DNA of 64,000 nt. It comes from a virus (Duplodnaviria > Caudoviricetes). The notes under the pieces were generated by a model, which saw only the letters and a list, made by a program, of their open reading frames with translations, searched no databases and was not told where the DNA came from. Every line of letters starts with the position of its first letter. The stretch's first letter is position 1. A program made the translations under genes and the position numbers. The stretch is from IMG/VR virus record IMGVR_UViG_3300028591_000070, positions 224,001 through 288,000 of that record; one strand, given 5' to 3'. Shown here piece by piece: positions 13,627 through 42,752 of the stretch.

Positions 13627-13658
13627 TAAAAGCCTCTCAAATGAGAGGCTTATTTTTT
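13627..13658. terminator. bidirectional intrinsic terminator
   Basis: AAGCCTCTC-AAAT-GAGAGGCTT between convergent genes. Confidence 0.8.
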
Positions 13659-14709
13659 AAGCTGGAAAGTCGCCTTTATTGATTACACGTACAATATTTC
13701 CATACTGGAAAGTTCCAGGAACAGGCACCATGGCATTAGTATTATAAACAAGTTCATCAATCAATTCACCATTTTTTACAAGTCGTGTGGATCCATCTGG
13801 ATGTGGCATAGGTGACTCAATTTCAAGACGTTTGAAATCTTCAATAAAAGTATTTGGATTCCAATGGATAATGTCTTTATTTACCATTGTATGGTAACCA
13901 CCCGAAGTAGCAACTATTACATAATTTCCTTTTCCAAGTTTTTCATTGCAGTAGTCCATCCAGCCTTCAAGAAGTGGAAATCCATCTACATAATAATCTC
14001 GGATATATTTACCCCAATCATTTAGGTCGAGATCAAAGTCTACCCAATATTTTGTACCAACATTGTCGAACTGAAGGCGCTTCATCTTAGAGAGTGATTT
14101 ACACATCTTATAAAGAGACTGGCTTGTACCACTCTCATCAGATCTCATTTTTAGTGAACCGATTCTCTTTGTAATAGCATCCAAACTTTCGGCAGTAGGA
14201 TTATTCAAATAGCCAGACAAATCAGGACCAAGAATATTTGCAATAAAGTTTGCGCGATCAATATCTTTAATAGCTGAGTTTATCAATTCCTGCTCATGAA
14301 TATTGATATATCCTTTCAAGTCTTCAATAACTTTAAGCTCATCACAAGGATTAATATGGAAATAAACAACCATTGCTTTAGGTGGAAGTGTATGTCCTCC
14401 ATATGCAAAAGCTTCTTTATGGCACTCATAAGAACGAATACCTTTCTTCCAGCGTTCATATGTTGTTTCACCATCTTTAGTTGCAAAAACTACCTGTGGG
14501 TCAAGCATTTCTACACGACCTAAAGGTGATTTTAAATCTTCCTCATTAAGCTTTTTCTTACGAATTGAGAGACAGAAAGCATAAGCCTCATTTCTCTTTA
14601 GAGGATGCACACAATGGTCATAAAACCACTTAAGTTCATCTTCGTCAGCAATAAGCTTATAATGCTCGAGAGACTCCAACATTTTGATATTTTCTTCTAC
14701 AGTACTCAT
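13657..14709 (-). CDS. putative archaeo-eukaryotic primase (AEP)-fold protein
   Basis: WVDFDLD (DxD), ATSGGYH (SxxxH-like) and PVPGT motifs. Confidence 0.45.
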   Translation of the reverse strand: MSTVEENIKMLESLEHYKLIADEDELKWFYDHCVHPLKRNEAYAFCLSIRKKKLNEEDLKSPLGRVEMLDPQVVFATKDGETTYERWKKGIRSYECHKEAFAYGGHTLPPKAMVVYFHINPCDELKVIEDLKGYINIHEQELINSAIKDIDRANFIANILGPDLSGYLNNPTAESLDAITKRIGSLKMRSDESGTSQSLYKMCKSLSKMKRLQFDNVGTKYWVDFDLDLNDWGKYIRDYYVDGFPLLEGWMDYCNEKLGKGNYVIVATSGGYHTMVNKDIIHWNPNTFIEDFKRLEIESPMPHPDGSTRLVKNGELIDELVYNTNAMVPVPGTFQYGNIVRVINKGDFPA

Positions 14710-14715: not shown

Positions 14716-14744
14716 ATTATACTTTTTATTTTAAAGATTTTCAA
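14716..14744 (-). promoter_or_regulatory. sigma70-type promoter, leaderless start
   Basis: TTGAAA-N17-TATAAT, 6 nt before ATG 14709. Confidence 0.7.
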
Positions 14745-15567
14745 CTAGTTTTTTAGCCTCATCATCATAGATATCTGGACTTATTTGGACATAATCAATA
14801 CCATGAATTTTAAAGAAAGTTTTTACTTCTTTTATCTCTGAGAAAGCAGGTTTCTTTAAAGTAAAGTTGACAAAAATACTTTGTGATCCAAAGGTATCTC
14901 TTAAATATAGAAGATTATCCATAACCTTTTCCCAACTAGCTCCAATTCTAATGGCCTCAAAACTTTCTTTAGTTATACCATCAATAGATGGGGAAAAATT
15001 ATAAATCACTCCTGTTGTGTCACTTATCGCTTTAAGTTCATCTATTCTAGAATGAGAAAGTAAAGTTAAATTAGATTGAAAGTCTACAATTCTTGTATCT
15101 TTTGGAGATAAACCTTTTAAAAATTGAATTACTTTATAATAATAAAAGAAGACTTCGCCAGAGCTTATTAAATGAATTTTTTCTAATGAATGTCCTTTAA
15201 TTTTTTCTAATGTTTCAAATTGAAGGTCTCTAGTGTCTGGCTCATCTTTATGTTCTGTAAAAAAACAATGATAACAATGTAAATTACAAGCTTTAGAAAA
15301 AGATACAGTAACTACTTCTATTTTAGGACTTAAAGTACATGGGCAAGTGCACCATCCTTCATAAGCAGGCTTTTTAGAAATATTTACTTTTGATGATTCT
15401 TCTTCTGCAAATGAAATAAGATCCTTTATCTTTAAAAAATCTTTAATTGGCATATCTACCACAAAAGGATAGATATAACAACACCTAGAAAGACAAACTG
15501 TTTTTCCTTTTGGCTCATAAGTAATTTCTAGTCTAGAAGGCATTACACATTTATTAAAAACTTCCAT
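14731..15567 (-). CDS. radical SAM protein 1 (N-terminal twitch-like module; subfamily A)
   Basis: C..P...RCC...CTCPC; CNLHCYHCF; SSGEVFFYY; SIDG...FEAIR. Confidence 0.9.
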   Translation of the reverse strand: MEVFNKCVMPSRLEITYEPKGKTVCLSRCCYIYPFVVDMPIKDFLKIKDLISFAEEESSKVNISKKPAYEGWCTCPCTLSPKIEVVTVSFSKACNLHCYHCFFTEHKDEPDTRDLQFETLEKIKGHSLEKIHLISSGEVFFYYYKVIQFLKGLSPKDTRIVDFQSNLTLLSHSRIDELKAISDTTGVIYNFSPSIDGITKESFEAIRIGASWEKVMDNLLYLRDTFGSQSIFVNFTLKKPAFSEIKEVKTFFKIHGIDYVQISPDIYDDEAKKLVENL

Positions 15568-16403
15568 TACATTTCCTCAAACACTTTCTTTGCTTCTTCG
15601 TCAAAGCAGTCGTATGTCACAAAAGTATAGCCTATATTAAAATTTCTTGAAAAAAATTCTTTAACATTTTTATCTTTAAAATTTGGTTTTTTAATAACAT
15701 AGTTAATGCATATGTTCTCTGACCCAAATTCTTTAACCATTAACTCAAGGTTGTTCATAACTTTTTCAAAGTTTGCGCCTATTCTAGTTGCTTCAAACGT
15801 TTCTTTTGTAATTCCATCAATTGAAACAGTGATGTTTTTATATGGAATTCCTGTATTATCACTTACTTGTTTTAATTCTTTAATTCTAGTCTCATTTAAT
15901 GTAGAAAGACTTGATACAAAACTTACTTGTTTAGTATCTTTACATGGGTCTAAAGACTTTAAATAATTAAGTGTTTGATTATAATAAAAAAATGGTTCAC
16001 CTCTATCATTTAATCTTATTTCAGTAAGACAATTTCCTTTAATATTTTCTAAAGTTTTAAAATATAATTGTTTTGTTTCAGGGCTATCTTTATGCATTCC
16101 ATCCCAAAAGCAATGATAGCAACGTAAATTACAAGCCTTTGATAAGCCAACCGTTACTTTTTCAATTTTCTTAGGGAAATGACAAACTAAGCAACTGTCT
16201 TTGTGTTCATCATTAAAAACAGGTGGGACATTACAATGCTGATAAGCATATTCAATTATATTATTAATTTTTAAAAAATCCTCAATTGATAAAATTGAAA
16301 ATGGCTCAAGATAACAACATCTGCGTAAAAAAACTTTATCTTCTTGATTTAATATAATTGATAGTTCACCTAAAGGATTCCAACATTTTCTATTAATTTC
16401 CAT
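15567..16403 (-). CDS. radical SAM protein 2 (subfamily A)
   Basis: CWNP...RRCC...CLVC; CNLRCYHCF; DRGEPFFYY; SIDG. Confidence 0.9.
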   Translation of the reverse strand: MEINRKCWNPLGELSIILNQEDKVFLRRCCYLEPFSILSIEDFLKINNIIEYAYQHCNVPPVFNDEHKDSCLVCHFPKKIEKVTVGLSKACNLRCYHCFWDGMHKDSPETKQLYFKTLENIKGNCLTEIRLNDRGEPFFYYNQTLNYLKSLDPCKDTKQVSFVSSLSTLNETRIKELKQVSDNTGIPYKNITVSIDGITKETFEATRIGANFEKVMNNLELMVKEFGSENICINYVIKKPNFKDKNVKEFFSRNFNIGYTFVTYDCFDEEAKKVFEEM

Positions 16404-16405
16404 AA

Positions 16406-17254
16406 TTATCCCCTATAGTTATAAAATGCTTTTTTGCAATTCTCATCTAACATATCATAGTAAATATTAACTTCTACACCTTTTGAATTAAAAAAGGGTT
16501 TTATATTTGGCAAATCTTTAATAGAAGCTTCTCGAATAGTACAACAAACGCAAATATCTTTTTTATCAAAAATGGAAATTAAGTTATCAAAGTTTTCCAT
16601 AACTTGTTCCCAATTTGCGCCACATCTTGTTCCTTCAAAACTCTCTTTAGTTATGCCGTCTATAGAAGCAACAAACATATATTTAACACCAGTTTGTTCA
16701 CTTATTTTCTTTAATTCTAAAATACGATTTTTATTTAATAAAGTCATATTAGTAAAAAACCGCATAGTTTCAGTATCATTAAGAGTAAGACTCCTTAAAA
16801 ATTTAACAACCTCATTATAATAAAAGAATGGCTCTCCTTGGTCTGTGAGTTGTAGTTGATAAAGCTGATGACCTTTAACACTGTATAATGTTTTAAAAAA
16901 TAAATCTTTAATCTGTTTAGTATCTGTGTGATGTCCATCAAAAAAACAATCATGACAATGAATATTACAAGCATGAGATAAAGATACCACTACTTGTTTA
17001 ATTTTATCGGGTGGAAAATAACAAGTAGTACATCTATCCATGGTCATTTGTTTTCGTAATTCTTCAGGAGAAGGATATTTAAACGTCTTTGTATAATCTA
17101 TTATATCATCTATTTTTGAAAATTCTTCAAAGCTCAGGGTTTTAAAAGGAGCTAAATGACAACATCTTTTTAGAGCAACTTCTGTATCATTTTCTCTTGT
17201 AATCCAAAGCGCACCATAAGGAATGGTACAATTTCCATGATTTGCGAATTCCAT
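16406..17254 (-). CDS. radical SAM protein 3 (subfamily A)
   Basis: CTIPY...KRCC...CTTC; CNIHCHDCF; DQGEPFFYY; start moved to ATG 17254. Confidence 0.9.
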   Translation of the reverse strand: MEFANHGNCTIPYGALWITRENDTEVALKRCCHLAPFKTLSFEEFSKIDDIIDYTKTFKYPSPEELRKQMTMDRCTTCYFPPDKIKQVVVSLSHACNIHCHDCFFDGHHTDTKQIKDLFFKTLYSVKGHQLYQLQLTDQGEPFFYYNEVVKFLRSLTLNDTETMRFFTNMTLLNKNRILELKKISEQTGVKYMFVASIDGITKESFEGTRCGANWEQVMENFDNLISIFDKKDICVCCTIREASIKDLPNIKPFFNSKGVEVNIYYDMLDENCKKAFYNYRG

Positions 17255-17282
17255 AACAATAAAATTAGTGACTAATTTCAAT
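17255..17282. promoter_or_regulatory. back-to-back ACTAAT motifs (bidirectional late-like promoter)
   Basis: ATTAGT-G-ACTAAT at 17264-17276; 9 nt to ATG 17254 (-), 6 nt to ATG 17283 (+). Confidence 0.7.
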
Positions 17283-18116
17283 ATGAATAAATGCCATAGA
17301 AAAATATATTCTATACAAGTAGATTTTACTATAAATAAAGTTGAACTAACAAAATGCTGCTATTTACATGGAAATAAAATTTCAATTGAAGAATTTAAGG
17401 CATTAGATAATATTATTATTCCACCAAATGAATTACCTTCTAATCCTTACCATATTGAAAATTGTTTAATGAATTGCGACTTTGATGATAATAAATATCA
17501 AACAATAGATATTTGTTGCAGTAGTTTATGTAATGCAAAATGTTATCATTGTTGTGCTGCAGATCATTCTCATCCCGACCCTAGAGAAAGAGATTTACTT
17601 TATAATTTTATTTTACCAAAAGTAAAAGGTTTTGGATATGGAACTCTTCAACTAGATGGGAAAGGAGAAGTATTTTTAAATTATAAAGAAATAACAGCAT
17701 TTTTAAAAACTCTTTCTGCTGAAAAAGATTTTAAGACTGTAAGATTTTTAACAAATGGTTCAACACTCACTAAAGAACGATTATTAGAATTAAAATCTAT
17801 TAGTGATATGACAGGTATAAACTATATTTTTGCAATTTCAGTAGATGGCATTAGTAAAAAAACCTTTGAAGCAGTGAGATGTGGACTTTCTTTTGAAAAT
17901 GTAATGGCTAATTTGCAGAACACTGTAGAGATTTTTGGAAATAATAATGTAGATATTACTTTTACGATTAAAGAACCTAACAAAGAAGACACTCCTTATG
18001 TGAAAGATTTTTTAGTAAATAATTATAATATTTTACCTGAAAGAATCGCTATGCAAAGTGATTTTTTAGATAAAAATATGAATCAATATTTAACAAATTA
18101 TTTTAAAGATCGTTAA
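17283..18116 (+). CDS. radical SAM protein 4 (subfamily B)
   Basis: C...KCC...CLMNC; CNAKCYHCCA; DGKGEVF; SVDG; start moved to ATG 17283. Confidence 0.9.
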   Translation: MNKCHRKIYSIQVDFTINKVELTKCCYLHGNKISIEEFKALDNIIIPPNELPSNPYHIENCLMNCDFDDNKYQTIDICCSSLCNAKCYHCCAADHSHPDPRERDLLYNFILPKVKGFGYGTLQLDGKGEVFLNYKEITAFLKTLSAEKDFKTVRFLTNGSTLTKERLLELKSISDMTGINYIFAISVDGISKKTFEAVRCGLSFENVMANLQNTVEIFGNNNVDITFTIKEPNKEDTPYVKDFLVNNYNILPERIAMQSDFLDKNMNQYLTNYFKDR

Positions 18117-18958
18117 AACTTTTCAATAAATAATTTTTTACAATCTTCATCAAAAAAGTCATAAGTAATAACTACCCATACACCTAAATTTCTGAAAAAC
18201 GTTTCAATCTCTTCTCTTGAGGCAGCCATATTAGGTTTTTTAATAGTGTAATTTACTAAAACATCATCAAAATTATTTAATAAATATTTTAGATTTGTGA
18301 TAGTCTTATCAAACTTTCCATAAATACGAGTAGCTTCATAAGCTTCTTTTGTGATACCATCTATAGAGGCCTCAAACTTATAGTGAATACCAGTTTTTTC
18401 ACTTATATCTTTAAGTTCTTTAATTCTTTCTTCCGATAATAAATTTAAATTTGTTAAAAACTTTATTGTTTTTGCATCTTCAGTAGTTAAAGTTTTTAAG
18501 TAATCTCTTATCTTATAATAATAAAAGAAGGGCTCACCTCTGTCAGTAAACTCAATAATATCTAAGTCATGACCTTTAATTTTTTCTAAAGTTTCAAAAT
18601 ATAATTCTTTTAATTCTTTTGTGTCTCTATGATTTTCATAGAAACAATGATAACAATTTAGATTACAAGCATAAGATAGCCCAACAGTTACTCTTTTTAT
18701 TTCATTTTTTGGAAAATAACAAGGATGGCAAAAATTATCTTCTTTAGAAGAAAAATTAGTATTTGCATATTTACTATAGTCTAAATATTCAAAAGTTTTA
18801 GAAAATTCAATAGGATCTTTTATTTTAAGAAATTCTTCAATAGAACAACTATAAAAAGGCTTACCACGACAGCAGCGTTTTAGGTCAATTTTATTTTCAA
18901 AAAAATTAATATTTAATTCACCACCTTCATAAGCAGTACAATTTACTAGTTTACTCAT
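18113..18958 (-). CDS. radical SAM protein 5 (subfamily A)
   Basis: C...KRCC...CHPC; CNLNCYHCF; DRGEPFFYY. Confidence 0.9.
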   Translation of the reverse strand: MSKLVNCTAYEGGELNINFFENKIDLKRCCRGKPFYSCSIEEFLKIKDPIEFSKTFEYLDYSKYANTNFSSKEDNFCHPCYFPKNEIKRVTVGLSYACNLNCYHCFYENHRDTKELKELYFETLEKIKGHDLDIIEFTDRGEPFFYYYKIRDYLKTLTTEDAKTIKFLTNLNLLSEERIKELKDISEKTGIHYKFEASIDGITKEAYEATRIYGKFDKTITNLKYLLNNFDDVLVNYTIKKPNMAASREEIETFFRNLGVWVVITYDFFDEDCKKLFIEKF

Positions 18959-18961
18959 TAC

Positions 18962-19813
18962 TTAATCCCATCTTTTATTTAAAGGTACATATTTAGAACA
19001 ATACTCTTCATCAAAATAGTCAGAGCTCCATAAAACATTTGATCCTAGATTTTTAAAAAATTCTTCTACTTGAGGCACATCTTCTATGTTAGGCCGTTTA
19101 ACTGTAAATGTGACCAAAGTATTTCCAAAAAGATTATTTAATTTTTTTAAAACTAAAATTACTTTGTTAAAATCAGCACCTGGTCGACATTTCGAAAAAG
19201 TATCTTCTTTAATTCCATCTATTGAAAGATTAAACTGATAATTTACACCAGTTTTTTTAGATATTTCATATAATTGATTTATTCTATCTTCGTTTAAAAG
19301 AGTACCATTAGTCATAAAAAATATATTTTTAATATTATTACTTGTAATGCTATTTAAATATGTTATTAAATCATTATAATAAATGAAAATCTCGCCGGAG
19401 CCATCTAAGAATAAAGTACCAATATTTGAGTTTTTTAATAAGTTTAACATTTTAAATAAAAATTCTTTTGCTTTTAATGGATTATTTTGCTCTTTATTTA
19501 AAGGACTCCATCCATCAATAATTCCACCAAAACCTGCACAACAGTGATAACATCTTAAATTACAAGCCTTAATGACATTAAGGGTAACATTTTTTATCTG
19601 ATTTGAAAATGCACAATTCTTTTGGCATTGATTTTCATGACCTTCTTTAAACTCGGAAGAAATTGCAAGTTCACCTAAGTCATTTAAACTTTTATTTAAA
19701 AATTCTTCTAAAGAAATAGTTTTTTGTATAAGTTGACAACATCTACCTATATCTATAGTTTGATTTATATTATCATATGAAACTAATAAATCTGAAGTTT
19801 TACAACAAAACAT
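18962..19813 (-). CDS. radical SAM protein 6 (subfamily B)
   Basis: CC...GRCC...CQKNC; CNLRCYHCCAG; DGSGEIF; TNGTLL. Confidence 0.9.
   Translation of the reverse strand: MFCCKTSDLLVSYDNINQTIDIGRCCQLIQKTISLEEFLNKSLNDLGELAISSEFKEGHENQCQKNCAFSNQIKNVTLNVIKACNLRCYHCCAGFGGIIDGWSPLNKEQNNPLKAKEFLFKMLNLLKNSNIGTLFLDGSGEIFIYYNDLITYLNSITSNNIKNIFFMTNGTLLNEDRINQLYEISKKTGVNYQFNLSIDGIKEDTFSKCRPGADFNKVILVLKKLNNLFGNTLVTFTVKRPNIEDVPQVEEFFKNLGSNVLWSSDYFDEEYCSKYVPLNKRWD
18983..19018. repeat. 36-bp exact direct repeat shared by rSAM6 and rSAM8 (second copy 20692-20727)
   Basis: aggtacatatttagaacaatactcttcatcaaaata occurs at both positions. Confidence 0.85.
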
Positions 19814-19841
19814 ATATAGTAAATTTAGTACTAATTTTAAT
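19814..19841. promoter_or_regulatory. back-to-back ACTAA(T/A) motifs
   Basis: TTTAGT-ACTAAT at 19824-19835; 10 nt to ATG 19813 (-), 6 nt to ATG 19842 (+). Confidence 0.7.
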
Positions 19842-20669
19842 ATGCAAAAATGTCGAAGAACTAATGAATTATATATAACTTTAAATGACCAAAATAATAT
19901 ATATTTACAAAGATGTTGTGCGGCTTCAGGAGAAGTTATTAGTTTAGATGATTTTTTTAATTATTCTATAGATGAACTCAGCGAAATTCCAATAAATGGA
20001 CATACCCTAAATGAAAGAAAAAGTGGTTGTAGTAATAAATGCAATTTTTCAAAAAACATTAAAACAATATTTTTTAATGTGATTAATGTTTGTAATATTA
20101 AATGTTATCATTGCTGCGCCGGATGTGACCATAAAGGTTTAGGTAATATATCATTTAGAAAAAAGCAATTTTTTAAAATAATAAATACTATAAAAAATGC
20201 GCATCTTGATTCTATTGGATTCGATGGCACTGGAGAAATATTTCTCTTTTATAAAGACTTAGTGTCTTTATTAAAAACACTAACTCCAAATGATACTAAA
20301 GATATACGATTTTTAACAAATGGTACTCTTTTAAATGAAGACCGACTAAAAGAACTCTATCAAATAAGTAAAGACACAGGAATAAATTATAGGTTTGGTT
20401 TATCGGTAGATGGTTTAACAAAAGAAACTTATGAGAAAATAAGAGTGGGTGCAAATTTTGAACATACAATAGATATTATTGATTCTATAAAGAATATTTT
20501 TAATAATCCACCTGAAATTATTTTTACTATTAAAAAATATAATATCCAAGAAGTACCTTTTGCAAAAGATTTTTTTATACAACTAGGTTGCTCTTATATT
20601 GAATTTTTATATGACATATTTGATTCAGAATGTGGTAAATATATGCCAGAAGATTGTAGAATTGGTTAA
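19842..20669 (+). CDS. radical SAM protein 7 (subfamily B)
   Basis: C...QRCC...CSNKC; CNIKCYHCCAG; DGTGEIF. Confidence 0.9.
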   Translation: MQKCRRTNELYITLNDQNNIYLQRCCAASGEVISLDDFFNYSIDELSEIPINGHTLNERKSGCSNKCNFSKNIKTIFFNVINVCNIKCYHCCAGCDHKGLGNISFRKKQFFKIINTIKNAHLDSIGFDGTGEIFLFYKDLVSLLKTLTPNDTKDIRFLTNGTLLNEDRLKELYQISKDTGINYRFGLSVDGLTKETYEKIRVGANFEHTIDIIDSIKNIFNNPPEIIFTIKKYNIQEVPFAKDFFIQLGCSYIEFLYDIFDSECGKYMPEDCRIG

Positions 20670-20670
20670 T

Positions 20671-21516
20671 TTATGAATATCTTTTATCTACAGGTACATA
20701 TTTAGAACAATACTCTTCATCAAAATAATCTGAATTCCATGTGATACTAACATCATAAGGTTCAAAAAACTTTTCAACAAAAGGTACATCTTCTACATTA
20801 GGTCGTTTAACTGTAAATATTACAGTAGTATATGGGAATAATTTTGATATAAACTTTAAGTTATCTAATACCCTATTAAAATCAGCACCTGGTCTACAAG
20901 CATTAAAAGTTTTTTCGCTTATACCATCTACCGATATTACGAATCTATACTGAACATTTGTCGTTTTACTTATTTTTAATAAATTAACAATTTTATTTTT
21001 ATTTAAAAGAGTAGCATTTGTTTGAAAATAAATTATTTTTGTATTTTCACCTGAAAAAGATTTTAAAGCTTCAATGAGGTCATCATAATAAATAAATATT
21101 TCGCCAGAGCCATCCATACTAATAGAAGAAAGTTTTTTTGTTCTTAAGTAAGAAAGTGCATCAAAAAGAAAATTTTTTCTATCTTGTAATTCTTCTTTAC
21201 AAATATTTTTAGCATTCCATTCACTAATTGAACCACTCTGTCCTGCACAGCAATGAAGACAAGATAAATTACATTTAGCAATAGCTGATATAACTACGTC
21301 TGTTATAGGCTCTACAAAGCCACAATTAAATTGACACTGATGCATATGATCTGGCCTAAGCTCAATAGGAGTATTTGAAGCTAAATCTTCTAAACTATTT
21401 AAAAATAAATCTGCTCTAGAAAATTGGTGTTCTTTTAAATGACAACATCTACTTATTAAAATAAATCCAGGTTTGTCATATGATATATTTATAATCGAGG
21501 ACCTTGAACATGACAT
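20671..21516 (-). CDS. radical SAM protein 8 (subfamily B)
   Basis: C...SRCC...CQFNC; CNLSCLHCCAG; DGSGEIF. Confidence 0.9.
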   Translation of the reverse strand: MSCSRSSIINISYDKPGFILISRCCHLKEHQFSRADLFLNSLEDLASNTPIELRPDHMHQCQFNCGFVEPITDVVISAIAKCNLSCLHCCAGQSGSISEWNAKNICKEELQDRKNFLFDALSYLRTKKLSSISMDGSGEIFIYYDDLIEALKSFSGENTKIIYFQTNATLLNKNKIVNLLKISKTTNVQYRFVISVDGISEKTFNACRPGADFNRVLDNLKFISKLFPYTTVIFTVKRPNVEDVPFVEKFFEPYDVSITWNSDYFDEEYCSKYVPVDKRYS

Positions 21517-21532
21517 ACTAATTTAATTAGTT
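21517..21532. promoter_or_regulatory. 16-bp intergenic gap with opposed ACTAAT motifs
   Basis: ACTAAT-TTA-ATTAGT near-palindrome between divergent ATGs 21516 and 21533. Confidence 0.7.
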
Positions 21533-22372
21533 ATGTGTCATCCATGGGAAAATTCTTTAGTAATTAATCAATTCGAAGGCTTAGATGGCTTTGAGGTTAG
21601 TAGATGCTGTATATTGAAAAGTAAAAAAATATCAAAAGAACAATTTTTTGAGTCATCCTTAAATGATGTTGGCAGGTTTGCTAAACCTGAGTCTTTTATC
21701 CAAGATGACTTATCACTATGTGCTCATGATTGTAATTTTTTAGAAGATATAAGTAAAGTTCATTTAAATATTATTCATAATTGTAATTTAAGATGTTATC
21801 ATTGTTGTGCAGGCTTTGATAAAAATGACCCAAGATTATGTTTTGGACTTAATAAATCTTTAGAATATCATCAACAGAAAAAAGAGTCATTTTTTCAAGT
21901 TTTAAATTATTTAAAAAACTATCCATTAAAAATAATATCAATGGATGGATCTGGAGAAATTTTTTTATATTATAAAGACCTAATTCATTACTTATTGTCA
22001 GTAAGATCTCACAATGTAGAAGAAATTTGTTTTTTAACAAATGGTACATTATTAACTGAAGAAAAAATTATTACTTTAAGTAAAATAAGTGAAAAAACAA
22101 AAATCAAATATAGTTTCGACCTCTCAATAGATGGTGTAACTAAAGAAAGTTTTGAATCAATTAGACATGGTGCAAAGTTTGAACAAATAATAGAAACAGC
22201 ATATCTTTTAAAAAATTATTTTGATACACAGATTAATTTTACTATTAAAAAACCAAATATCAGTGATATTGATAAGGTAGCAGATTTTTTTAAAGATTTT
22301 AGACTTTTCTGGTCATATGATTATTATGATCCTGAATGTGCGAAATATTTAAAAAATAAATGGGGAGAATAA
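21533..22372 (+). CDS. radical SAM protein 9 (subfamily B)
   Basis: CHPW...SRCC...CAHDC; CNLRCYHCCAG; DGSGEIF. Confidence 0.9.
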   Translation: MCHPWENSLVINQFEGLDGFEVSRCCILKSKKISKEQFFESSLNDVGRFAKPESFIQDDLSLCAHDCNFLEDISKVHLNIIHNCNLRCYHCCAGFDKNDPRLCFGLNKSLEYHQQKKESFFQVLNYLKNYPLKIISMDGSGEIFLYYKDLIHYLLSVRSHNVEEICFLTNGTLLTEEKIITLSKISEKTKIKYSFDLSIDGVTKESFESIRHGAKFEQIIETAYLLKNYFDTQINFTIKKPNISDIDKVADFFKDFRLFWSYDYYDPECAKYLKNKWGE

Positions 22373-22385: not shown

Positions 22386-24260
22386 TTAAGCCATATCAAT
22401 ATGAAACTCTCTTCCTCTTAAATAATTTTTACGAGGAGTTGAGTCATCACCATACCATTCTTCAATAGTTGTTTTAGCTCTATCATCCATTTCAAAAGGT
22501 TTAAGAAGTTTATCCATTCCACCAACTTTTTCGATAATTTGTTTTAAGTCTTCTTTTACCCAAGAACCCAATCCTTTCAAATAAAAATATTCAAGATTTT
22601 TCTTAAGTTCTGAATTTTTAGGAAATGCAAAATAATACTCTTCTACGCTATTACCTTTTTTACCAATCAAAAGAGGTGTTTCCAATCTACAAACTCTTCC
22701 TTGTTCAAGCATTTTAGGAGCAACTATACTAAAGAATGTGAGAATAAGACCAGCAATAGCACAACCATCTGGGTCGGCGTCAGTAAGAATTACAACTTTA
22801 TCATAAGTCATATCTTCTGTATTACCATTGGCATCTAAACCTAAAATATCACACAACTCCTTGATTTCGCGATTCTTCATAAACTCAACTGGCTTTTCAC
22901 CGAAGATATTCATCAACTTACCACGAAGCATATAATATCCAATACCTTTTCTACCTAAAATTGGAGAAATACCTGAAAAGGCAGAGAAACCCTCAGTTAT
23001 CATAAGATAATTTTTTCCAGTTTTTCCAATAGGTCCAAAATATTTATCAGACTCAACTTCCTTCTTACCTTTATTTAACTTTGCCAACTCTTTCTGTTCA
23101 GCTAATTCTTCTTTAAGTCTAAATAAATCAGTAATGTTATTAACAATTTCTTTTTCTCTAAGAATTTTAGCTGTAAAGCCATCCATATCAAGTTGATTAT
23201 CTCTAATAAAGTCGCCTACTTCTCCCCAAGAGTTTGTAAGTTTCTTTTTAGTCTGACTATCAAATGCACAGTTCAAAAATCCTTTTAAGAAAATTACAAT
23301 ACCGATGCGGTTACGAATATCAGCCGGTTTAATTGCTTTATATTTCTTTGAAACTTTATCACGAATATCACTTACAATTTTGTTTGTGATATAGTCAGCA
23401 TGGGTTCCACCTTCCTTCAATGAAATACCATTTACATAAGTAAGTGTATAAGGCTCTTCAGAAGGATAAACACAGATATAAGCATTTGGCTCATTCATAA
23501 CAATTGCTGGCTGTGGAAATAATGAACTTAAATCTTTGGCTGCTTTAATATTTACTTTTTCACCATTGAAAGTAAAAGTACAATCTGGATAAAACCATGA
23601 CAAAAACTTCAATCTAGTTTTTACAAGCAAAATAATATCTTCATCAAATCCTTTTACTGAAAATTTTTCAAAATCAGGTGAGAAAGTAATTTTTGTTCCA
23701 GTCTTGTTATTAGCTGCAAGTTCTTTTACATTGATTTTAGAAAGATTATTTTCACAAGAGATTTTCATCTTTCCTTGGCCATCACAAGTAATACATTCAA
23801 ATGTTTTTGAGAAAATAGATGCGGCCTTAATTCCAATACCATTTGTACCAATTGTCTCACGATTTTCATCATTGAAGTTTGAACCTGACATTGGAACTGT
23901 TACAGCATTTACACACATCCAATCTCCATTATCCATTTTCTTAACTGGAATACCACGGCCATTATCTTCAATAGAGAAAGTATTTTTGTCCATTGTGATA
24001 TTTATTTTTGTTGAATACTTCCAACCTGTTTTAATACCTTCGTCAACCGAATTATCAATTGCTTCATTTACAATCTTGTGAAGACCTTCTACAATATTTA
24101 CAGTTTTTAATTCAATTCCGCCTTCTTCATTCAAAGTCCACTCCATAGTATCAGAAGGTTTCATACCGCCTACATACATCTGTGGTCTCGCCAAAATATG
24201 TTCTACTGGAGAAAGTGATTTAATTGATCTATCATCTACTTGTTTCTTTTTTGCTGCCAT
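22386..24260 (-). CDS. type IIA topoisomerase ATPase/TOPRIM subunit (T4 gp39+gp60-like, fused)
   Basis: EHILARPQMYVG, EAIDNSVDE, DNGRGIP, GTNGIG, ITEG.SA, LRGK, DADPDG, YLKGLG. Confidence 0.95.
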   Translation of the reverse strand: MAAKKKQVDDRSIKSLSPVEHILARPQMYVGGMKPSDTMEWTLNEEGGIELKTVNIVEGLHKIVNEAIDNSVDEGIKTGWKYSTKINITMDKNTFSIEDNGRGIPVKKMDNGDWMCVNAVTVPMSGSNFNDENRETIGTNGIGIKAASIFSKTFECITCDGQGKMKISCENNLSKINVKELAANNKTGTKITFSPDFEKFSVKGFDEDIILLVKTRLKFLSWFYPDCTFTFNGEKVNIKAAKDLSSLFPQPAIVMNEPNAYICVYPSEEPYTLTYVNGISLKEGGTHADYITNKIVSDIRDKVSKKYKAIKPADIRNRIGIVIFLKGFLNCAFDSQTKKKLTNSWGEVGDFIRDNQLDMDGFTAKILREKEIVNNITDLFRLKEELAEQKELAKLNKGKKEVESDKYFGPIGKTGKNYLMITEGFSAFSGISPILGRKGIGYYMLRGKLMNIFGEKPVEFMKNREIKELCDILGLDANGNTEDMTYDKVVILTDADPDGCAIAGLILTFFSIVAPKMLEQGRVCRLETPLLIGKKGNSVEEYYFAFPKNSELKKNLEYFYLKGLGSWVKEDLKQIIEKVGGMDKLLKPFEMDDRAKTTIEEWYGDDSTPRKNYLRGREFHIDMA

Positions 24261-25624
24261 TAAAGTCTACCCTCCTTTTTAAGTTCTTTTTCTAACTCAT
24301 CAATATCTTTAAGCCAAAGTGTAACTGGAGTTTCGTTCTTAATAAAATTGTCTAATTCTTCAACTTTAGCTTGATACTTTTCTTCCATCTCTTTTGCTTT
24401 ATCAGATGTAATAGAATAAAGTGGCATAGAAATAAGTTTATCGATATTAATATATTTCTTTTTCTTCATATCTGCTTCTACAACAGATTTTTTAAATTTA
24501 AGATTTATAGTTCCTGCAATTACTTCTTTAATAAAGCGAACGACTTCAGCTAAATAAATCTTTTCATTTTCAAGTCGCTTTTCTTCAGACTTCTTACGCT
24601 TCTCCATATATTTAAGCTTAATATCATAATAAGCATTAAATACATCTGTTGCATCTTTAAAACCATCTTCAACGGCATTATTTTCATTAATCAATGTTGG
24701 ATTTTCGGTGATTACTTCAACTAAGCCCAAATCTTTAAGAATTGTTTCTTGTGGTAGGGCGGCTTCTTCATCAGTAAGAGTTATTTCAAAGTGAAAAGTA
24801 TCTACCTCTGGGTCAGATCCATCAATATATTTTTCAATTCTCTTTTTCTCTTTAGGTTTTTTAGGATCTGGATTTTTATATTTAGATAAAAGAGCTAAAT
24901 ACTTTTGTAAATCCCAGGTAATAGGAAGTTCATCAATTACAACTTTTTTACCTTGGATAGTTGCAACTCCACGAACCTCATATTTATTTGGCTCTAATTC
25001 AGCAACCGTTCCTTTAAATCCCTGCCAATTTGGGAGTAATAAATCCTTTTTAATTCTTTTGCCTTCCAATTTATTTCGAGTAAGCTTAATAATATTTTCA
25101 ATTGGGCGAGCATACATTTGGCCTGCAAAACCTACGCCAATACCTTCTGCTCCATTCACCAAAATCATAGGTAAAGTTGGCACATAAAATCTTGGCTCAA
25201 TTTCGTCACCTTCAAATTCCTGAGAAATAAGATTTTCATCATCACTTTTTCTAAAAATTAAATCTGAATAGTCTGCCATTCTCGCAAAAATATAACGAGG
25301 AGCAGAAGCTTCTGGAATAAGACGAGTTCCAAAAGAACCTTCACCTTTAACATAAGGTAAATTATTAGCTCCACAATAATCTGCTGCCAATGTTACAATT
25401 GTACCTTGAATTCCTGAGTCACCATGTAAATAACCAGCTTCCATAATAATAGAACTTGCTAATGCTGATACTTTAATTTTGCTTTTAATGTTACGTTGCT
25501 TTACTGTATAAATTACTTTTCTACCTGAGTTTTTCAAACCGTCAATATATGATGGCAAAGACCTATATGCCATATACAAAGCGCTTTGACTATACTCTTC
25601 ATTTAAAAACTTTGTAATATCCAT
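24260..25624 (-). CDS. type IIA topoisomerase breakage-reunion subunit (T4 gp52-like)
   Basis: DGLKNSGRK, YLHGD, SAPRY (catalytic Tyr), LVNGAEGIGVGF; no gyrase CTD pinwheel. Confidence 0.95.
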   Translation of the reverse strand: MDITKFLNEEYSQSALYMAYRSLPSYIDGLKNSGRKVIYTVKQRNIKSKIKVSALASSIIMEAGYLHGDSGIQGTIVTLAADYCGANNLPYVKGEGSFGTRLIPEASAPRYIFARMADYSDLIFRKSDDENLISQEFEGDEIEPRFYVPTLPMILVNGAEGIGVGFAGQMYARPIENIIKLTRNKLEGKRIKKDLLLPNWQGFKGTVAELEPNKYEVRGVATIQGKKVVIDELPITWDLQKYLALLSKYKNPDPKKPKEKKRIEKYIDGSDPEVDTFHFEITLTDEEAALPQETILKDLGLVEVITENPTLINENNAVEDGFKDATDVFNAYYDIKLKYMEKRKKSEEKRLENEKIYLAEVVRFIKEVIAGTINLKFKKSVVEADMKKKKYINIDKLISMPLYSITSDKAKEMEEKYQAKVEELDNFIKNETPVTLWLKDIDELEKELKKEGRL

Positions 25625-25632: not shown

Positions 25633-25641
25633 AATATTAAC
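25633..25641 (-). promoter_or_regulatory. GTTAATATT motif upstream of topo II
   Basis: Recurrent motif ending 8 nt before ATG 25624; no SD. Confidence 0.6.
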
Positions 25642-25878: not shown

Positions 25879-25924
25879 AAAAATAATATTAACATGGGGC
25901 GTTTTTAATTTTACTAATTAAAGT

Positions 25925-27118
25925 ATGTTAGGAAGTCCAAATCTAGTTTCTGCAGCTTGGAGAAGTCAAAGTGGTGATAAAAATGACCCATTAACTGACT
26001 ATCAGGGATATAAAAATATTTATATTTCCGACCCAAAATTTGAAAATTATTATATAAATCATGTCTCTGTTCCAAACCCTGTAGTAGATGCTATGGACTC
26101 ATCTATTGCAGGTGAAGGCTCTCATGCACAAGAAAGTGTAAACTATTTTAGGACTATAGATATTAAAATTGTTCAAGATGCTGGAGCTTATACTAGTTGG
26201 TATGCTAATAAAACAAAAGGATGGGGAAATTGGCGAAGTAACAGTATAAAAGTTGATGATAGAGTTACTCTCTATATAGATGACCTTTCTAAAATAGGAA
26301 TGACTTATTCTCAAAACTTTGGTTATGCTTGGGATGAAATTGCTGGATCAGGAGCTATTGGTAAAGTAGCTGATATGGCCAAGAAAATCCAAAATAATGC
26401 AGCTATGTTAGCAGCTGCTAATGGAAGTTCAATGGATGTTGATTCTTCTACTCCAATGGGAAAATATCAAAAAGTACCATATATTAAGTCAGTAGAACCT
26501 TTTAAGATTGAGCCATCTTCTTTAACATTTAATTTCAACTTTGGGCAAGCAGGTATTTTTAGTGGTGAACAAGAAGTTGTAAGACCTATTTTAGCTTTAG
26601 CTCGTATCTTTTTACCTTATCAATCACCTTATAAAGAAGATGGAACAGGTGGAGATTGGTTAAATTTAGCTGCTCCTACTCAAGCTCAAGTATATGCCAA
26701 TATTGCCTCTGTTATGGGTGGTTTTATTAGTGAGCAAGGAAAAAACTTATCTGATAAACTTTCTGAAATGGGAAGTGCATTAAAAGAAGATTTTGATATT
26801 TCTCATCCAGTCGACTCTACTAAAAAAGCATTAGGAGATGGAGCTGCTGCAGCTTCAAATATAGCTACTACATTTATTAAAGGCTTATATAAACGTATTG
26901 ACCAAGGCCTTAAAACATCAATGGAGAAGAATAGTAAAAGTATTATTCTTAGAATAGGCCGCTATCAATTGCCACCTTGTTTTCCAAGTAGTGTTTCGTG
27001 GAATTTTGATTTTACACAAGTTGATGAGTATGGATTCCCAAGAGGTGGTACTATTACTTTTGAAGGACTTCAGTCACCTAAATGTGGTGAACTTACTGAT
27101 ATTGGTTTATTATCTTAA
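25925..27118 (+). CDS. putative baseplate / tail-tube initiator (T4 gp48/gp54-like)
   Basis: C-terminal ILRIG..LPPCF.SSVSWNF...GFP..GTITF; next to tape-measure-like gene; ACTAAT motif at 25913-25918. Confidence 0.5.
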   Translation: MLGSPNLVSAAWRSQSGDKNDPLTDYQGYKNIYISDPKFENYYINHVSVPNPVVDAMDSSIAGEGSHAQESVNYFRTIDIKIVQDAGAYTSWYANKTKGWGNWRSNSIKVDDRVTLYIDDLSKIGMTYSQNFGYAWDEIAGSGAIGKVADMAKKIQNNAAMLAAANGSSMDVDSSTPMGKYQKVPYIKSVEPFKIEPSSLTFNFNFGQAGIFSGEQEVVRPILALARIFLPYQSPYKEDGTGGDWLNLAAPTQAQVYANIASVMGGFISEQGKNLSDKLSEMGSALKEDFDISHPVDSTKKALGDGAAAASNIATTFIKGLYKRIDQGLKTSMEKNSKSIILRIGRYQLPPCFPSSVSWNFDFTQVDEYGFPRGGTITFEGLQSPKCGELTDIGLLS

Positions 27119-30100
27119 AGTTGAAGCTTCCTGATCTGTCCAAGTTTTTCCTTCCTTAAGACTTTCAATTGCATTTAAGATTCTTTCAAGCATTGCTTCA
27201 AGATTACTATTATCAACATTTACATTAGTTGTAGGAGTATTCTTTTTATTTTCGGCACCCATTGCAGAACTACTTGTTTCTCTAAAGTTGAGAGAGCCTT
27301 CAATACCTAAAGTTTTAGCAATACTAGATGAGTCTATTTTTGAGAATCTTTCTAGAGCATCTGTTAGTCTATCAACTTTATTTATCATATCATCTGCATT
27401 CTTATTCATTTTAATATTGAACAATGTTGTAATAGCAGTTTTAATTTCTTTTGCTTTCTTGTTTAAGCCATCACCTTCTGGTAAACTTTGAAGTCTTTCA
27501 ATTCCAGGCATAATTGATTCTATATTTGCATTAAACTTATTGCCATCAATTGTGTCTATTTGAGATGTGAGTTCATTTACTCCAGCAATTGCATTTTTAA
27601 TTGCTTTTGTATTAGGAGAAGCTTTCATACTTTGTATTTTGTTTAAGGCATCTAAGAAGATTGAAATACCATCTAAGTTGATACCCTTTAATTGATCACT
27701 TAAATTTCTCATAGGGCCTACTGAGTCTGACATTTTATTGATTAAATCTGCTACAGTAGTTCCCATCTTATCTGAAACCCAAGATGCTGCTGCTTCATGA
27801 ACACTTGCCAATAATCCAGGACTTCTTGCTTTTTCTGCAATCAATTCCATAGTATCTAAGTATTTTATAACAGCTTCTGTATCAACTCCATTTTTAGATA
27901 ATTCAGTGAGCTGTTCCATTGCATCTAATGATTTTTTAAGTGTTGAGAAGAATAAACTCATAAGAACAGCTGAAATAGTACCTAATAAGAAATGGATAGT
28001 ACCACCTACTAAAGTTTTAGCTGCAATAACAGCTCCTGCTAAGAATGGAATTAAGCCATATTTACTCTGGAATGGCTTTAAGATATTATCACCATACATA
28101 GCATCCACTAAGTTTGGGTCAGATCTCTTTCCAAAGAATTTTGCAACCTTTGAAAATATAAATAATGCTGGTGTTAAAGTTATAAGTACAGCTGAAATTA
28201 AAGTAGCACCAACCATGGCAATTGGACCTAACGCAGCTGTTAAACCTAATAAACTAATAGTAAGGGTCATTGCGTTTACAAAACCTAAAATACCAGTCTT
28301 AGCTAATGCTGGATTTGTCTCTGTAAATAATGGCTCATTACCCAGCATTTCTGATATAGCTTTGAAAGGTAATGCAACCATAGCCAACATGGTAATTGCA
28401 GCCATAATAGGTGGTAAACTAGCCATAGCAATTATAGCTGCAGGAGCGGTTACTGCTGTAGCCGCAAATGGAAGGGCCATAAGAGTGATATTTTTAGCAG
28501 ATAATTTAATCTGGTCTTTATCTATTTTACTTAATGCTGAAACAGCAACTTTAGATCCAACAGCAAAAGCAGCTAACATTAAAGCTGCAGGCATAGATGT
28601 TGCCATAGCCAATAAAGCGACTGGACCAACTAAAGCTAAAGGCATAGTAGCAGTGAATAAGCCAATAAGACCTGGGCCTTCATCTCCACCAGCCATAACA
28701 GTTACAGCATGTTGGATATCAGTTGGATTTATCATTGCTAAAGTTTTCAAAGCAAGGAATGCAGTTAATGCGAATGTAGTTGTAAGAATAGCTGCAGCCA
28801 CTCCTAATGCTAATGGAGCCATAACATACATGGCTGCCGCACCTAATAAAGCTGTAACTGCCATAACTCCAACAAATCCTAAAACAGCTATCATAGCAAC
28901 TCCAACCATTTTAGGAGTAATTGAACTTAATGCCTTTAATGCGACGAACGCTAAACCTGCAAATACAGTAGTGAGTACGGCCGCTAATAAACCTTGAGCA
29001 ATCTTATCTGTCATTTTGCCCATTAGATTTAAGGCAAAAGTCATGCCTATAGCAAATAGTCCAAGGGCTGCTGCTCCAACTAATGCTTTAACAGCAATAG
29101 GAGTTATCAATGAAGTTATAATCATTGAGACAGAGGTAAGAGTAACTAACAGAACGATGGCTTTAATGGCTCTTGTACTTTTCTGTATTTTCTTTAAGTC
29201 AAATTTATCTGAAACAAAATCTAGAAATATCGCTAATTCCTTTACAAAAAACTTTGCAGCCATTGCTCCAAATTTACCTAATATTGCAAATGGAGTTATA
29301 ATAGCAAAAGTTTTACAAGTTTTTAAGGTATTCACAGCGATGTCTTTGATACTCTCCATTGATTTAGCTAAACTTTTAATTTTTGATAGCTTCATATCTT
29401 CAAGAGTATCTATCAAAGGCTGAATACCTTTTGTAAAGAAACTTTTTATATTTTTTACTGAGCTAATAGCCAATTTAGAAATTAAACTAGACTTAATAAT
29501 GGCTTTCATAGAGTCATTGATACATGATGCTGCAAGAGCTAGATTTGTAGCAAAATTACCAATATTATCTCCCATACCACTAAGCCGTTCAAGATATTTA
29601 TCCATATCATCTAGTTTGGCGTTTGCTTTTTTGAAGTTTATAAAATGTGTAAGTGCATTTAAGGATATAACTTGTTTTACAACTTGACCAAAGTTTGCAG
29701 TAATAGAACCCATTTGCTTTGTAAACTTTTCAGAGTTCTTTGTATTAACTTTAGTATGAGTAGTTTTATCCATAGACTCAGTAAGTTCATCCAATCTTTT
29801 CTGAGTATCTTTGAACACACCTATATCTAATGGCTTTTGATTTGAAACAAAGTTTGTTAATTCTTGAAAATCTTTAATATATTTTTTAGAGTTTTCAACA
29901 TTAGATCCTAAAACAATAACTCCTGCTGCTGAAATAGGATTATTTTTAGAAGCAGTTATTTCTTTTACAGGCTTATTTAAGATTTTAATAATATCATCTA
30001 TTTTGGCACCCAAATATAAAGCAGGAGTACCATATTTTGCAGCCAATTTTTTAACATCATTTATTTTATCAGTTGGTTTCTGGAAATGTTCTTTTGGCTC

Positions 30101-30346: not shown

Positions 30347-30401
30347 AATTTAATTAGTAAAATCATGACTGTTAATATTTTTTGTATAGGAGAAAATATT
30401 A

Positions 30402-33393: not shown

Positions 33394-33400
33394 TTTATTT

Positions 33401-41151: not shown

Positions 41152-41481
41152 ATGGCTACAATTATAGAGTTTGAAGATAATTTAATTTGGGTTACATGTT
41201 CAGGTTCTCAATTCCAAGATCAGATAGAATCTTGTAAGTATCTCAAAATGAATTATAATCCCTCTAAAAAGAAGTGGTCTATAAGTCCAGGAAAAATAAA
41301 AGAAGTAATGGATGAGTTCTCAGCTTATGGTATTCAATTATCTGAGTATGATAAAGAAGCCATCAATAATTATATTGATGGCCTTTCAAACTTTCATAGA
41401 ATAGTTAAGCGTTCAGAAAGACGGCATTTCAATTTAAGTTTAATGAAAAAACCACCTTTTATTCCACCTAGCAGTTCTTAA
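41152..41481 (+). CDS. short protein resembling the N-terminal (HARP-like) part of SF2 helicases
   Basis: YNPSKKKWSI motif; ends at KKPPF, where a helicase Q-motif would normally follow. Confidence 0.35.
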   Translation: MATIIEFEDNLIWVTCSGSQFQDQIESCKYLKMNYNPSKKKWSISPGKIKEVMDEFSAYGIQLSEYDKEAINNYIDGLSNFHRIVKRSERRHFNLSLMKKPPFIPPSSS

Positions 41482-42751: not shown

Positions 42752-42752
42752 A

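Follow-up and report, generated by a model that had tools for sequence, protein, structure and literature searches.

An ACTAAT motif shared by an rSAM gene array and virion genes of an uncultured 386-kb phage is probably a phage-specific promoter element with predicted leaderless mRNAs

The genome analysed here (386 kb) belongs to an uncultured gut/rumen phage, and the window, a stretch of 64,000 nucleotides from it, carries an array of nine radical-SAM (rSAM) paralogues. Each is about 280 aa long, shares 31-41% identity with the others and contains a CX3CX2C motif; all four paralogues tested matched Pfam Radical_SAM. A conserved Cys, on which all nine N-termini can be aligned, supports the ATG calls of these genes. 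Coordinates and strands fit the layout given in the initial annotation, namely (1<-2<-3), (4->)(5<-6), (7->)(8<-) and (9->), separated by divergent gaps of 28, 28 and 16 bp (17255-17282, 19814-19841 and 21517-21532), and these gaps hold the opposed ACTAA(T/A) hexamers quoted there. In window coordinates, the locus reads as follows:

13630-13651: bidirectional terminator, at the end of the minus-strand unit of the 350-aa gene and rSAM paralogues 1-3
13657-14709, minus strand: gene for a 350-aa protein, one unit with rSAM paralogues 1-3
14731-15567, 15567-16403 and 16406-17254, minus strand: rSAM (CX3CX2C) paralogues 1, 2 and 3
17264-17276: gap 1, back-to-back ATTAGT (ACTAAT on the minus strand, N9 from the paralogue 3 ATG at 17254), G and ACTAAT (on the plus strand, N6 from the paralogue 4 ATG at 17283)
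17283-18116, plus strand: rSAM paralogue 4, canonical ACTAAT-N6-ATG
18113-18958 and 18962-19813, minus strand: rSAM paralogues 5 and 6, a single unit
19824-19835: gap 2, back-to-back TTTAGT (ACTAAA on the minus strand, N10 from the paralogue 6 ATG at 19813) directly joined to ACTAAT (on the plus strand, N6 from the paralogue 7 ATG at 19842)
19842-20669, plus strand: rSAM paralogue 7, canonical ACTAAT-N6-ATG
20671-21516, minus strand: rSAM paralogue 8
21517-21531: gap 3, ACTAAT-TTA-ATTAGT, a perfect 15-nt palindrome (plus-strand motif N10 to the ATG at 21533, minus-strand motif N9 to the ATG at 21516)
21533-22372, plus strand: rSAM paralogue 9

The nine genes are arranged as six ACTAA(T/A)-headed units, and the canonical N6 spacing is present in only two of the six putative promoters (genes 4 and 7). 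Unlike the back-to-back pairs of gaps 1 and 2, the motifs of gap 3 face and cross each other, and the predicted 5' ends would therefore overlap. Further genes in the window are also headed by ACTAAT-N6-ATG, and a motif scan confirmed the sites at 25913, 30358, 33389 and 46122 (the latter two before the genes that had been noted at 33401 and 46110):

25913-27118, plus strand, motif at 25913: gene W25925 for a 397-aa protein with a tail-tube-initiator/baseplate fold, ACTAAT-N6-ATG
27110-30358, minus strand, motif at 30353-30358: gene for a 1078-aa orphan protein, ACTAAT-N6-ATG
33389-34612, plus strand: gene for a 403-aa orphan (ATG at 33401), ACTAAT-N6-ATG inside a GTTAATAT-headed operon
41468-46122, minus strand, motif at 46117-46122: five-gene unit (44917-46110 and downstream) headed by ACTAAT-N6-ATG

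The predicted structure of the W25925 protein, which had been called gp48-like, matched baseplate tube-initiator chains with Foldseek probabilities of 0.95-1.0, and four of its homologues matched phrog_1114. The label tape-measure-like for the 1078-aa protein found no support in family comparisons.

The initial annotation had proposed a genome-wide scan for the motif. Across the whole genome, ACTAAT-N6-ATG occurs 45 times and opens 43 ORFs of at least 60 codons, compared with 0-5 such ORFs for each other spacer between 0 and 15. The ORF-bearing N6 sites are followed by ATG in 43 cases and by GTG and TTG in one case each. Counted by gene, ACTAAT begins at -12 in 40 of the 483 called genes and at any other position in 0-5 genes. 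Within the window, six ACTAAT-N6-ATG sites contrast with 1.17 expected, and none of 100 shuffles reached six. A logo of 44 N6 sites together with 61 other sites gave the consensus ACTAATT(A/T)(A/T), with no information upstream of -13 and no -35 element. At -1, 77% of the sites have T and 20% have C (97% T or C), and +1 is A. As had been noted for the array, Shine-Dalgarno (SD) sequences are scarce next to the motif: an SD core is found in two of the 66 short-spaced ACTAA genes (3%) versus 70% of the other genes, and the SD is kept in 89% of genes with leaders.

With the A of the ATG taken as the transcription start, the N6 spacing places the hexamer at -12 to -7. This N6 geometry, the T or C at -1, the missing SD and the near-universal ATG together suggest leaderless mRNAs. 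At the 45 N6 sites the hexamer lies 6 bp 5' of the start codon, within the 6-7 bp of leaderless promoters, and the combination of an AUG start with no SD corresponds to these as well. The leaderless consequence of the N6 spacing was absent from the initial annotation. Compared with the TANNNT form of sigma-70-family -10 elements, the T at -7 agrees, as do the middle bases, but A stands at -12 and C at -11. Because C replaces the near-invariant A at -11, both the register and the reader of ACTAAT are uncertain.

The motif is not confined to start codons. ACTAATT is also found 18-29 nt 5' of ordinary AGGAG leaders (for example at genome positions 14871, 43444, 54942, 71884, 219258 and 304555), ACTAAT precedes three tRNA-operon leaders, and it often lies directly 3' of hairpin-plus-T-run terminators. 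These contexts indicate that ACTAAT is a transcription signal and not a substitute for a ribosome-binding site. Of 40 divergent gaps in the genome, 30 contain ACTAAT and ten have it on both sides; 63 of the 80 gene starts at these gaps have one of three motifs, namely ACTAAT or one of the two described below. Logo, contexts and divergent gaps thus support the promoter-type role that had been assigned to ACTAAT, as a single -10-like element with no -35.

Two other motif classes accompany it. The host sigma-A-type class TTGAA-N17-TATATT precedes small early genes as well as the single sigma-70-family gene of the phage; GTTAATAT forms a second phage class before replication genes. Like ACTAAT, the GTTAATAT class is devoid of -35 elements; its TAATAT part conforms to TANNNT, the pattern of ordinary -10 hexamers. 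The window holds an example of each:

25634-25641, minus strand: GTTAATAT, N9 before the topoisomerase II subunit genes 24260-25624 and 22386-24260
46151-46159, plus strand: GTATATTCT, the -10 part of the TTGAA-N17-TATATT class, before the small-gene run 46182-48128

The classes differ in gene content. Units headed by GTTAATAT encode polymerase, clamp loader, topoisomerase II, helicases, primase, NrdD and GroEL. ACTAAT units encode rSAMs, baseplate wedge, DNA methylases, homing endonucleases and many orphans, as well as RtcB and tRNA operons, and no replication protein was found among 106 ACTAAT-unit proteins. As had been proposed, ACTAAT precedes morphogenesis genes, namely the baseplate wedge gene, the tube-initiator-like gene W25925 and the Gp23 capsid gene, the last of which lies behind ACTAAT plus an SD leader. 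Since most ACTAAT-driven proteins have no family match, the label "structural" refers to three identified virion genes plus orphans. Because ACTAAT units lack the replication genes, which follow GTTAATAT, the rSAM genes appear to share a regulon with the virion genes, and with their six ACTAA(T/A)-headed units all nine would therefore be made together with them.

To find the reader of ACTAAT, we searched the genome for candidate factors. The gp55-like sigma factor suggested by the initial annotation gave no match at E<=10 when phrog_234 and phrog_12791, the families picked out from T4 gp55 itself, were compared with the six-frame genome, although a very diverged homologue is possible. The earlier proposal of a late promoter that co-expresses the rSAMs is hence sustained for the promoter and the regulon shared with virion genes, but not for a gp55-type factor. 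No beta, beta' or T7-type RNA polymerase was found in the genome either: PF00562 and PF00623 had no match while control genomes responded, and PF00940 had no match with a silent control, which makes this last result weak. The only recognisable sigma in the genome is a SigA-like protein with regions 2 and 4 (genome 209897-210634), encoded in an early operon behind a host-type promoter, an arrangement that is kept in a relative. It may read GTTAATAT, ACTAAT or neither. Another candidate is a 258-aa two-domain protein (genome 202030-202806) encoded behind GTTAATAT. Sigma domain 2 gave the best structural matches to its N-terminal domain (Z 7-8.5, rmsd about 3 Å over about 89 residues), with a model pLDDT of 63 and Z values that helical proteins often reach; comparisons with Pfam, PHROG and PDB sequences and by hhalign were all negative.

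Both phage motifs are conserved. Relatives with capsid identities of 44-68% again show GTTAATAT and ACTAAT beside ATG, and ACTAAT is found in relatives down to 32-46% protein identity. Orthologues of W25925 at 32-35% identity, with a GC content of 35-45%, still have the divergent ATTAGT..ACTAAT pair. Motif-to-ATG spacing in relatives is N5 in L023, and N4 and N6 in L025. A fixed motif-to-start distance does not account for the N5 and N4 spacings.

Other readings of the motif have to be weighed. A phage or host endoribonuclease could use ACTAAT as a processing site and trim precursors just upstream of the ATG; the rigid spacing and the C at -11, odd for a -10 element, would fit, and leaderless mRNAs made by a nuclease are known (MazF). 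We consider this improbable, as divergent gaps of 16-32 bp leave no room and show no other motif for a precursor promoter, many sites follow immediately after terminators, a sigma-70 consensus scan over the rSAM array stayed at shuffle level (99 sites versus 96 expected), and the pyrimidine/purine at -1/+1 fits initiation. Very improbable, in our view, is a non-SD translation signal, be it a binding site for the ribosome or a factor or a RegA-type translational operator. The motif does occupy the SD position and replaces it, with a rigid spacing that shifts between lineages, but it also occurs 18-29 nt upstream of genes with their own AGGAG, precedes tRNA operons and follows terminators, and GTTAATAT with its TANNNT-type TAATAT behaves alike. 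There is hardly more than a slim chance that the inverted ATTAGT..ACTAAT pairs, present in ten gaps and forming a perfect palindrome in gap 3, are operators of a dimeric DNA-binding regulator acting on unseen gap promoters; most sites consist of one co-directional half-site whose distance to the ATG is fixed, and the spacers of paired half-sites measure anything between 0 and 8 nt or more, a range too wide for a dimer operator.

A further reading accepts ACTAAT as a promoter but questions its timing: the class could be middle, continuous or not set in time at all, and rSAM expression need not coincide with assembly. Here tRNA operons, RtcB, DNA methylases and homing endonucleases behind ACTAAT, tandem GTTAATAT and ACTAAT before some genes and tRNA operons, and the one "head maturation protease" match, which sits in a GTTAATAT unit, speak in its favour. 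We regard it as unlikely, since capsid, baseplate wedge and tube initiator are all behind ACTAAT and the replication proteins that fill the GTTAATAT units are missing from the ACTAAT units.

Taken together, the motif, its spacing, contexts and conservation, and the split in gene content between classes, all directly observed, lead us to infer that ACTAAT most likely marks a phage-specific class of single -10-type promoters that makes leaderless mRNAs and forms the late or structural tier of a three-tier programme; start site, timing and factor are predicted with reasonable, though not high, confidence, and "late" is read from gene content only. ACTAAT(T) would be the sole element, with no -35, and would be read by the host core RNA polymerase together with a phage-encoded specificity factor. 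At N6, transcription would start on the start codon and give an mRNA with neither leader nor SD; at N7-N10, the leader would measure 1-4 nt, and at other genes ACTAAT lies 18-29 nt 5' of a normal SD leader. In the first tier, host sigma-A-type promoters would serve the small early genes together with the gene for the phage sigma, in the second GTTAATAT would drive DNA replication and nucleotide metabolism genes, and in the third ACTAAT would drive the capsid, baseplate and tube-initiator genes, those for giant orphan proteins, DNA methylases and homing endonucleases, and the two rSAM islands. From such co-expression one could speculate that virion or DNA are the rSAM substrates.

More tentatively, and with considerable doubt, a wide clade of uncultured 250-440-kb gut/rumen phages might run this three-tier cascade on the host core polymerase, with a cryptic and strongly diverged sigma-like factor (candidate: the 258-aa protein) as the reader of the last tier; this factor would recognise a C-containing -10 and start on the start codon. 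If so, about a fifth of phage genes, including virion and some sixteen rSAM genes, would be translated leaderless, in a late switch of translation mode with the other genes staying on strong SD sites, and factor and motif-to-ATG distance would evolve together (N6, N5 or N4 by lineage).

The closest parallels come from promoters of other phages and of Deinococcus-Thermus bacteria. T4 late promoters (TATAAATA; gp55 with gp33 and the gp45 clamp) likewise consist of a single -10-type element with no -35 and serve capsid, baseplate and tail genes, and the capsid of this phage is of the Gp23 family. In T4, homing endonuclease genes are also behind the late motif, as they are behind ACTAAT here. The differences are the motif itself (ACTAATT, not TATAAATA), the missing gp55 homologue (phrog_234, phrog_12791) and the leaders: T4 late mRNAs have SD leaders, whereas about half of the ACTAAT sites are predicted to be leaderless. 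In the sigma cascade of Bacillus phage SPO1, host sigma-A is followed by gp28 and then gp33/34. It resembles the present case in its three promoter classes on the host core enzyme, with a phage sigma gene in a host-type early operon here, but we recognise one sigma and two phage classes without -35.

Late promoters of the jumbo phages AR9 and phiKZ (AACA-N6-TA/G; TATG) are similarly short single boxes whose distance to the start site is fixed, yet they are read by phage multisubunit RNA polymerases, none of which was found in this genome, and AR9 UTRs of 26-491 nt are not leaderless. Where a gene of these jumbo phages has promoters of two classes, its expression is continuous (PMC5312081). In Deinococcus, a -10 motif 6-7 bp before ORFs was shown experimentally to be a leaderless promoter arrangement, and the Thermus host itself widely uses leaderless mRNAs (PMC12340547). 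The hexamer 6 bp before ATG and the missing SD agree with these TANNNT promoters; the bases at -12 and -11, which are A and C where TANNNT has T and A, do not, and ACTAAT is phage-specific, beside a separate host-type class, with GTTAATAT fitting TANNNT better. Most middle and late mRNAs of the large Thermus phage phiYS40 are leaderless (PMC3594737), a parallel to the leaderless mRNAs predicted here; the motif differs, and in this phage the SD-led genes use strong AGGAG sites while about 20% of phage genes would switch mode.

The window belongs to a single virus contig of 385,934 bp (GC 31.7%), on which a crude call of ATG-initiated ORFs yielded 483 genes covering 91% of the genome. It encodes a T4-type Gp23 capsid protein, and a scan of the genome for the Pfam families Portal_T4, Phage_sheath_1, Peptidase_S77 and Terminase_6N gave no match for any of them. 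No close annotated relative was detected by megablast and tblastn against 50,697 phage records; homologues of the capsid protein (44-69% identity) are located on metagenomic contigs of 250-440 kb, some of which were binned with Clostridia.

By a wide margin, the placement of the hexamer ACTAAT relative to start codons is beyond chance. It begins at position -12 in 40 called genes, compared with 0-5 genes for each of the other positions between -60 and -1. Scanning the genome without gene calls, we found 45 ACTAAT-N6-ATG sites (N6: 6 nt between motif and ATG), 43 of which open at least 60 codons, while each of the other spacers within 0-15 gave only 0-5 ORFs of this length. In the window, six sites were observed and 1.17 expected, and the four further sites named in the initial annotation were all recovered. 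Start codons of the ORF-bearing N6 sites are ATG (43), GTG (1) and TTG (1). With the A of the ATG as +1, N6 places the hexamer at -12 to -7; the extended motif reads ACTAATT(A/T)(A/T), and -1 is T or C in 97% of the sites. An alternative parsing, TAATTW extended by 'AC', was rejected because a normal 6-nt discriminator would put the start site on the G of the ATG. The arrangement is a practical start-codon guide in these genomes and speaks, for example, for a start at W33401 (W, window coordinate) rather than for that of the longer ORF.

To decide between a promoter and a translation signal, we considered the contexts of the motif. ACTAATT also occurs 18-29 nt ahead of genes with an AGGAG of their own, upstream of three tRNA-operon leaders and directly 3' of hairpin-plus-T-run terminators. 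We found a Shine-Dalgarno (SD) core in 89% of the leader-bearing ACTAAT genes and in 70% of other genes, but in only 3% (2/66) of the short-spaced ACTAAT genes. The hexamer geometry of the N6 sites is that of leaderless promoters proven experimentally in Deinococcus (PMC12340547). Based on these contexts and this geometry, we conclude that ACTAAT is most probably a promoter element and that the N6 genes would give leaderless mRNAs from a presumed start site. This predicts a large-scale use of leaderless mRNAs in a phage whose other genes rely on strong SD sites and, if true, bears on how the phage redirects translation late in infection.

Divergent gaps provide a form of bookkeeping, as each of them requires two promoters. 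One of three recurring motifs, ACTAAT, GTTAATAT or a host-type promoter, is found at 63 of the 80 gene starts of the genome's 40 divergent gaps. ACTAA is present on at least one side in 30 of the 40 and on both sides in ten, three of which lie in the array of radical-SAM (rSAM) genes. A generic sigma-70 scan over this array revealed no excess (99 sites vs 96 in shuffles).

The host-type class, with 36 intergenic copies, consists of TTGAA-N17-TATATT and a conserved leader ATATAAGAGGTAA and is, judged by its sequence, a textbook sigma-A promoter. Downstream are short genes, DNA ligase, a CCA-adding enzyme and the phage sigma gene. GTTAATAT occurs in 88 copies in the genome, 68 of them not wholly within a coding region. 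Its TAATAT part fits the TANNNT form of a -10 hexamer, and no -35 element was found for it. The motif is N6 or N7 from the ATG in 20 genes, with SD leaders at its other genes, and its units encode DNA polymerase pieces, clamp loader, topoisomerase II, helicases and primase together with NrdD/G, dTMP kinase, dUTPase, GroEL and Mre11/Rad50-like proteins. By contrast, no replication protein was found among 106 sampled proteins of ACTAAT units, which include at least seven rSAMs, a baseplate wedge protein (phrog_219), DNA methylases, homing endonucleases, RtcB and a sugar isomerase. Most of the 106 are without any family, and a PHROG scan of 20 large ACTAAT-driven proteins assigned no family to almost all of them. 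As gene content divides the classes in this way, the ACTAAT class is best read as a putative virion or late-type regulon. The promoter reading of the initial annotation gains from the contexts of the motif (terminators, tRNA operons, AGGAG leaders); the term 'late' is inferred from gene content. The three classes chart, from sequence alone, how an uncultured jumbo-phage clade programmes its transcription, and they sort hundreds of orphan genes into regulons of early, replication or virion type.

Upstream of the capsid gene (genome 17569-17987, contig coordinates, stretch L001), ACTAAT is followed in order by an SD, a 62-aa ORF, about 200 nt of non-coding DNA and the gene's own SD. The small ORF and ACTAAT are also found in the relatives L022, L025 and L026, and the arrangement may be a regulatory leader. 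For the protein encoded at W25925, the label 'gp48-like' is reasonable: four of its 165 homologues match phrog_1114, and Foldseek matched its AlphaFold model (pLDDT 78) best with tube-initiator/baseplate chains, from contractile injection systems as well as from the baseplates of phages P1 and A-1(L) (probability 0.95-1.0, E 5e-3 to 6e-2). The only match of its profile to PDB sequences, a designed helical bundle, was dismissed as spurious. Neither Pfam nor PHROGs lent support to the 'tape-measure-like' label of W27110-30346, and the proteins of W25925, W30402 and W44917, each 397 aa long, turned out not to be paralogues. A homing endonuclease gene (genome 156269-157135, L008:16269-17135, minus strand; phrog_655, E 8e-38) has the canonical ACTAAT-N6-ATG. 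In three tRNA-operon leaders (genome 164104, 169264 and 183440, minus strand), GTTAATAT lies about 35 nt upstream of TGTACTAATTA(A/T)A(A/G)(T/A)TATAAA; these are predicted tandem promoters of both phage classes.

The rSAM array and its surroundings comprise the following features:

W12506-12528: palindrome GTTAATATTAAC, two GTTAATAT in opposite directions, with ACTAATT 17 nt later
W12570-13625: GGDEF diguanylate cyclase gene (Pfam E 7.5e-26), preceded by the palindrome
W13657-14709: 350-aa gene, included in the first rSAM unit
W14731-22372: nine rSAM paralogues
W16464-16471, minus strand: GTTAATAT copy within rSAM gene 3; rSAM gene 2 follows 60 nt downstream
W18113-18116: 4-nt overlap of convergent rSAM genes
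W20669-20671: convergent rSAM genes 1 nt apart

The nine paralogues, of about 280 aa each, are 31-41% identical and have in common a CX3CX2C motif as well as additional cysteines at the N-terminus; all four tested matched Pfam Radical_SAM. Their layout was borne out, as were the gap sizes of 28, 28 and 16 bp and the strings quoted from the gaps; the motifs had been described as back-to-back throughout, but those of gap 3, a perfect palindrome of 15 nt, face each other. The genes, whose ATG calls are backed by protein alignment, fall into six units with ACTAA(T/A) at the head of each. An exact ACTAAT-N6-ATG is found only at paralogues 4 and 7, the remaining four promoter-proximal genes having N9 or N10 spacing and one of them ACTAAA. 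The first unit ends in a bidirectional terminator. The same ACTAAT motif is used by another rSAM island, located near the capsid gene. With both islands under this class, the rSAM genes would thus be co-regulated with virion genes, and their place in a virion-type regulon narrows the substrate hypotheses without settling them.

No terminator was found between the convergent rSAM genes at either junction, and opposing transcripts would collide or run antisense to the neighbour gene. The GTTAATAT copy inside rSAM gene 3 may be an internal promoter of the second class or a chance match. Ahead of the GGDEF gene, GTTAATATTAAC and ACTAATT together resemble a dual-class promoter, and a second copy of the palindrome lies at genome 158267-158278.

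Which factor might read ACTAAT? Neither a beta/beta' or T7-type RNA polymerase nor, in the search suggested by the initial annotation, a member of the gp55 family was found in the genome. Its one sigma-70-family gene, which comes second in a host-type early operon, encodes a 245-aa protein with regions 2-4 and with SigA as the best PDB matches; relatives of this sigma in IMG/VR added no information. A further candidate is a 258-aa orphan protein (genome 202030-202806, L011:2030-2806, minus strand) behind GTTAATAT-N13. Its conservation, at 72-95% identity, is confined to close relatives, and a search of IMG/VR returned none. Its model (pLDDT 63) shows two helical domains with a disordered linker between them, and the best structural matches of the N-terminal domain are sigma domain 2, at Z values (ShbA 8.5, pro-sigma-K 7.6, SigC 7.5, SigB 7.5, SigW 7.2) that helical proteins commonly reach. 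Sigma chains make up about half of the top Foldseek matches, with E values of at least 0.35, and every sequence-based test was negative: Pfam, PHROG, BLASTP against the genome's true sigma, PDB sequences, and hhalign with a sigma profile. We hypothesize a cascade from host sigma-A to the phage SigA-like sigma reading GTTAATAT and on to a cryptic factor reading ACTAAT, which fits the layout.

In the relatives L023, L025 and L026 (capsid identity 68%, 46% and 44%), ACTAAT adjoins SD-less ATGs, and GTTAATAT-N6/7-ATG is likewise present. Unexpectedly, the spacing to the ATG is lineage-specific: N6 in this genome, N5 in L023, N4 (twice) and N6 (once) in L025, and N5 and N6 in L026. Orthologues of W25925 (32-35% identity), whose DNA has a GC content of 35-45%, still share a divergent ATTAGT..ACTAAT pair with their small neighbour, and a 30%-GC relative retains the host-type motif ahead of the sigma gene and GTTAATAT ahead of the 258-aa gene. 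Both phage motifs are absent from the 22 kb examined of L024 (58% GC, capsid 57% identical), where the divergent gap before the capsid gene (L024:9828-10001) contains TACTAACTAAC. A single-protein scan detected no related rSAM arrays, and a profile scan only a near-identical contig and two unrelated phages, both without the ACTAAT motif.

We found no paper that describes the motif or links ACTAAT to a phage promoter. The system differs from the gp55 system of T4 in its consensus and in giving no gp55-family match, but is like the T4 late promoters in architecture and like phiYS40 in consequence (PMC3594737).
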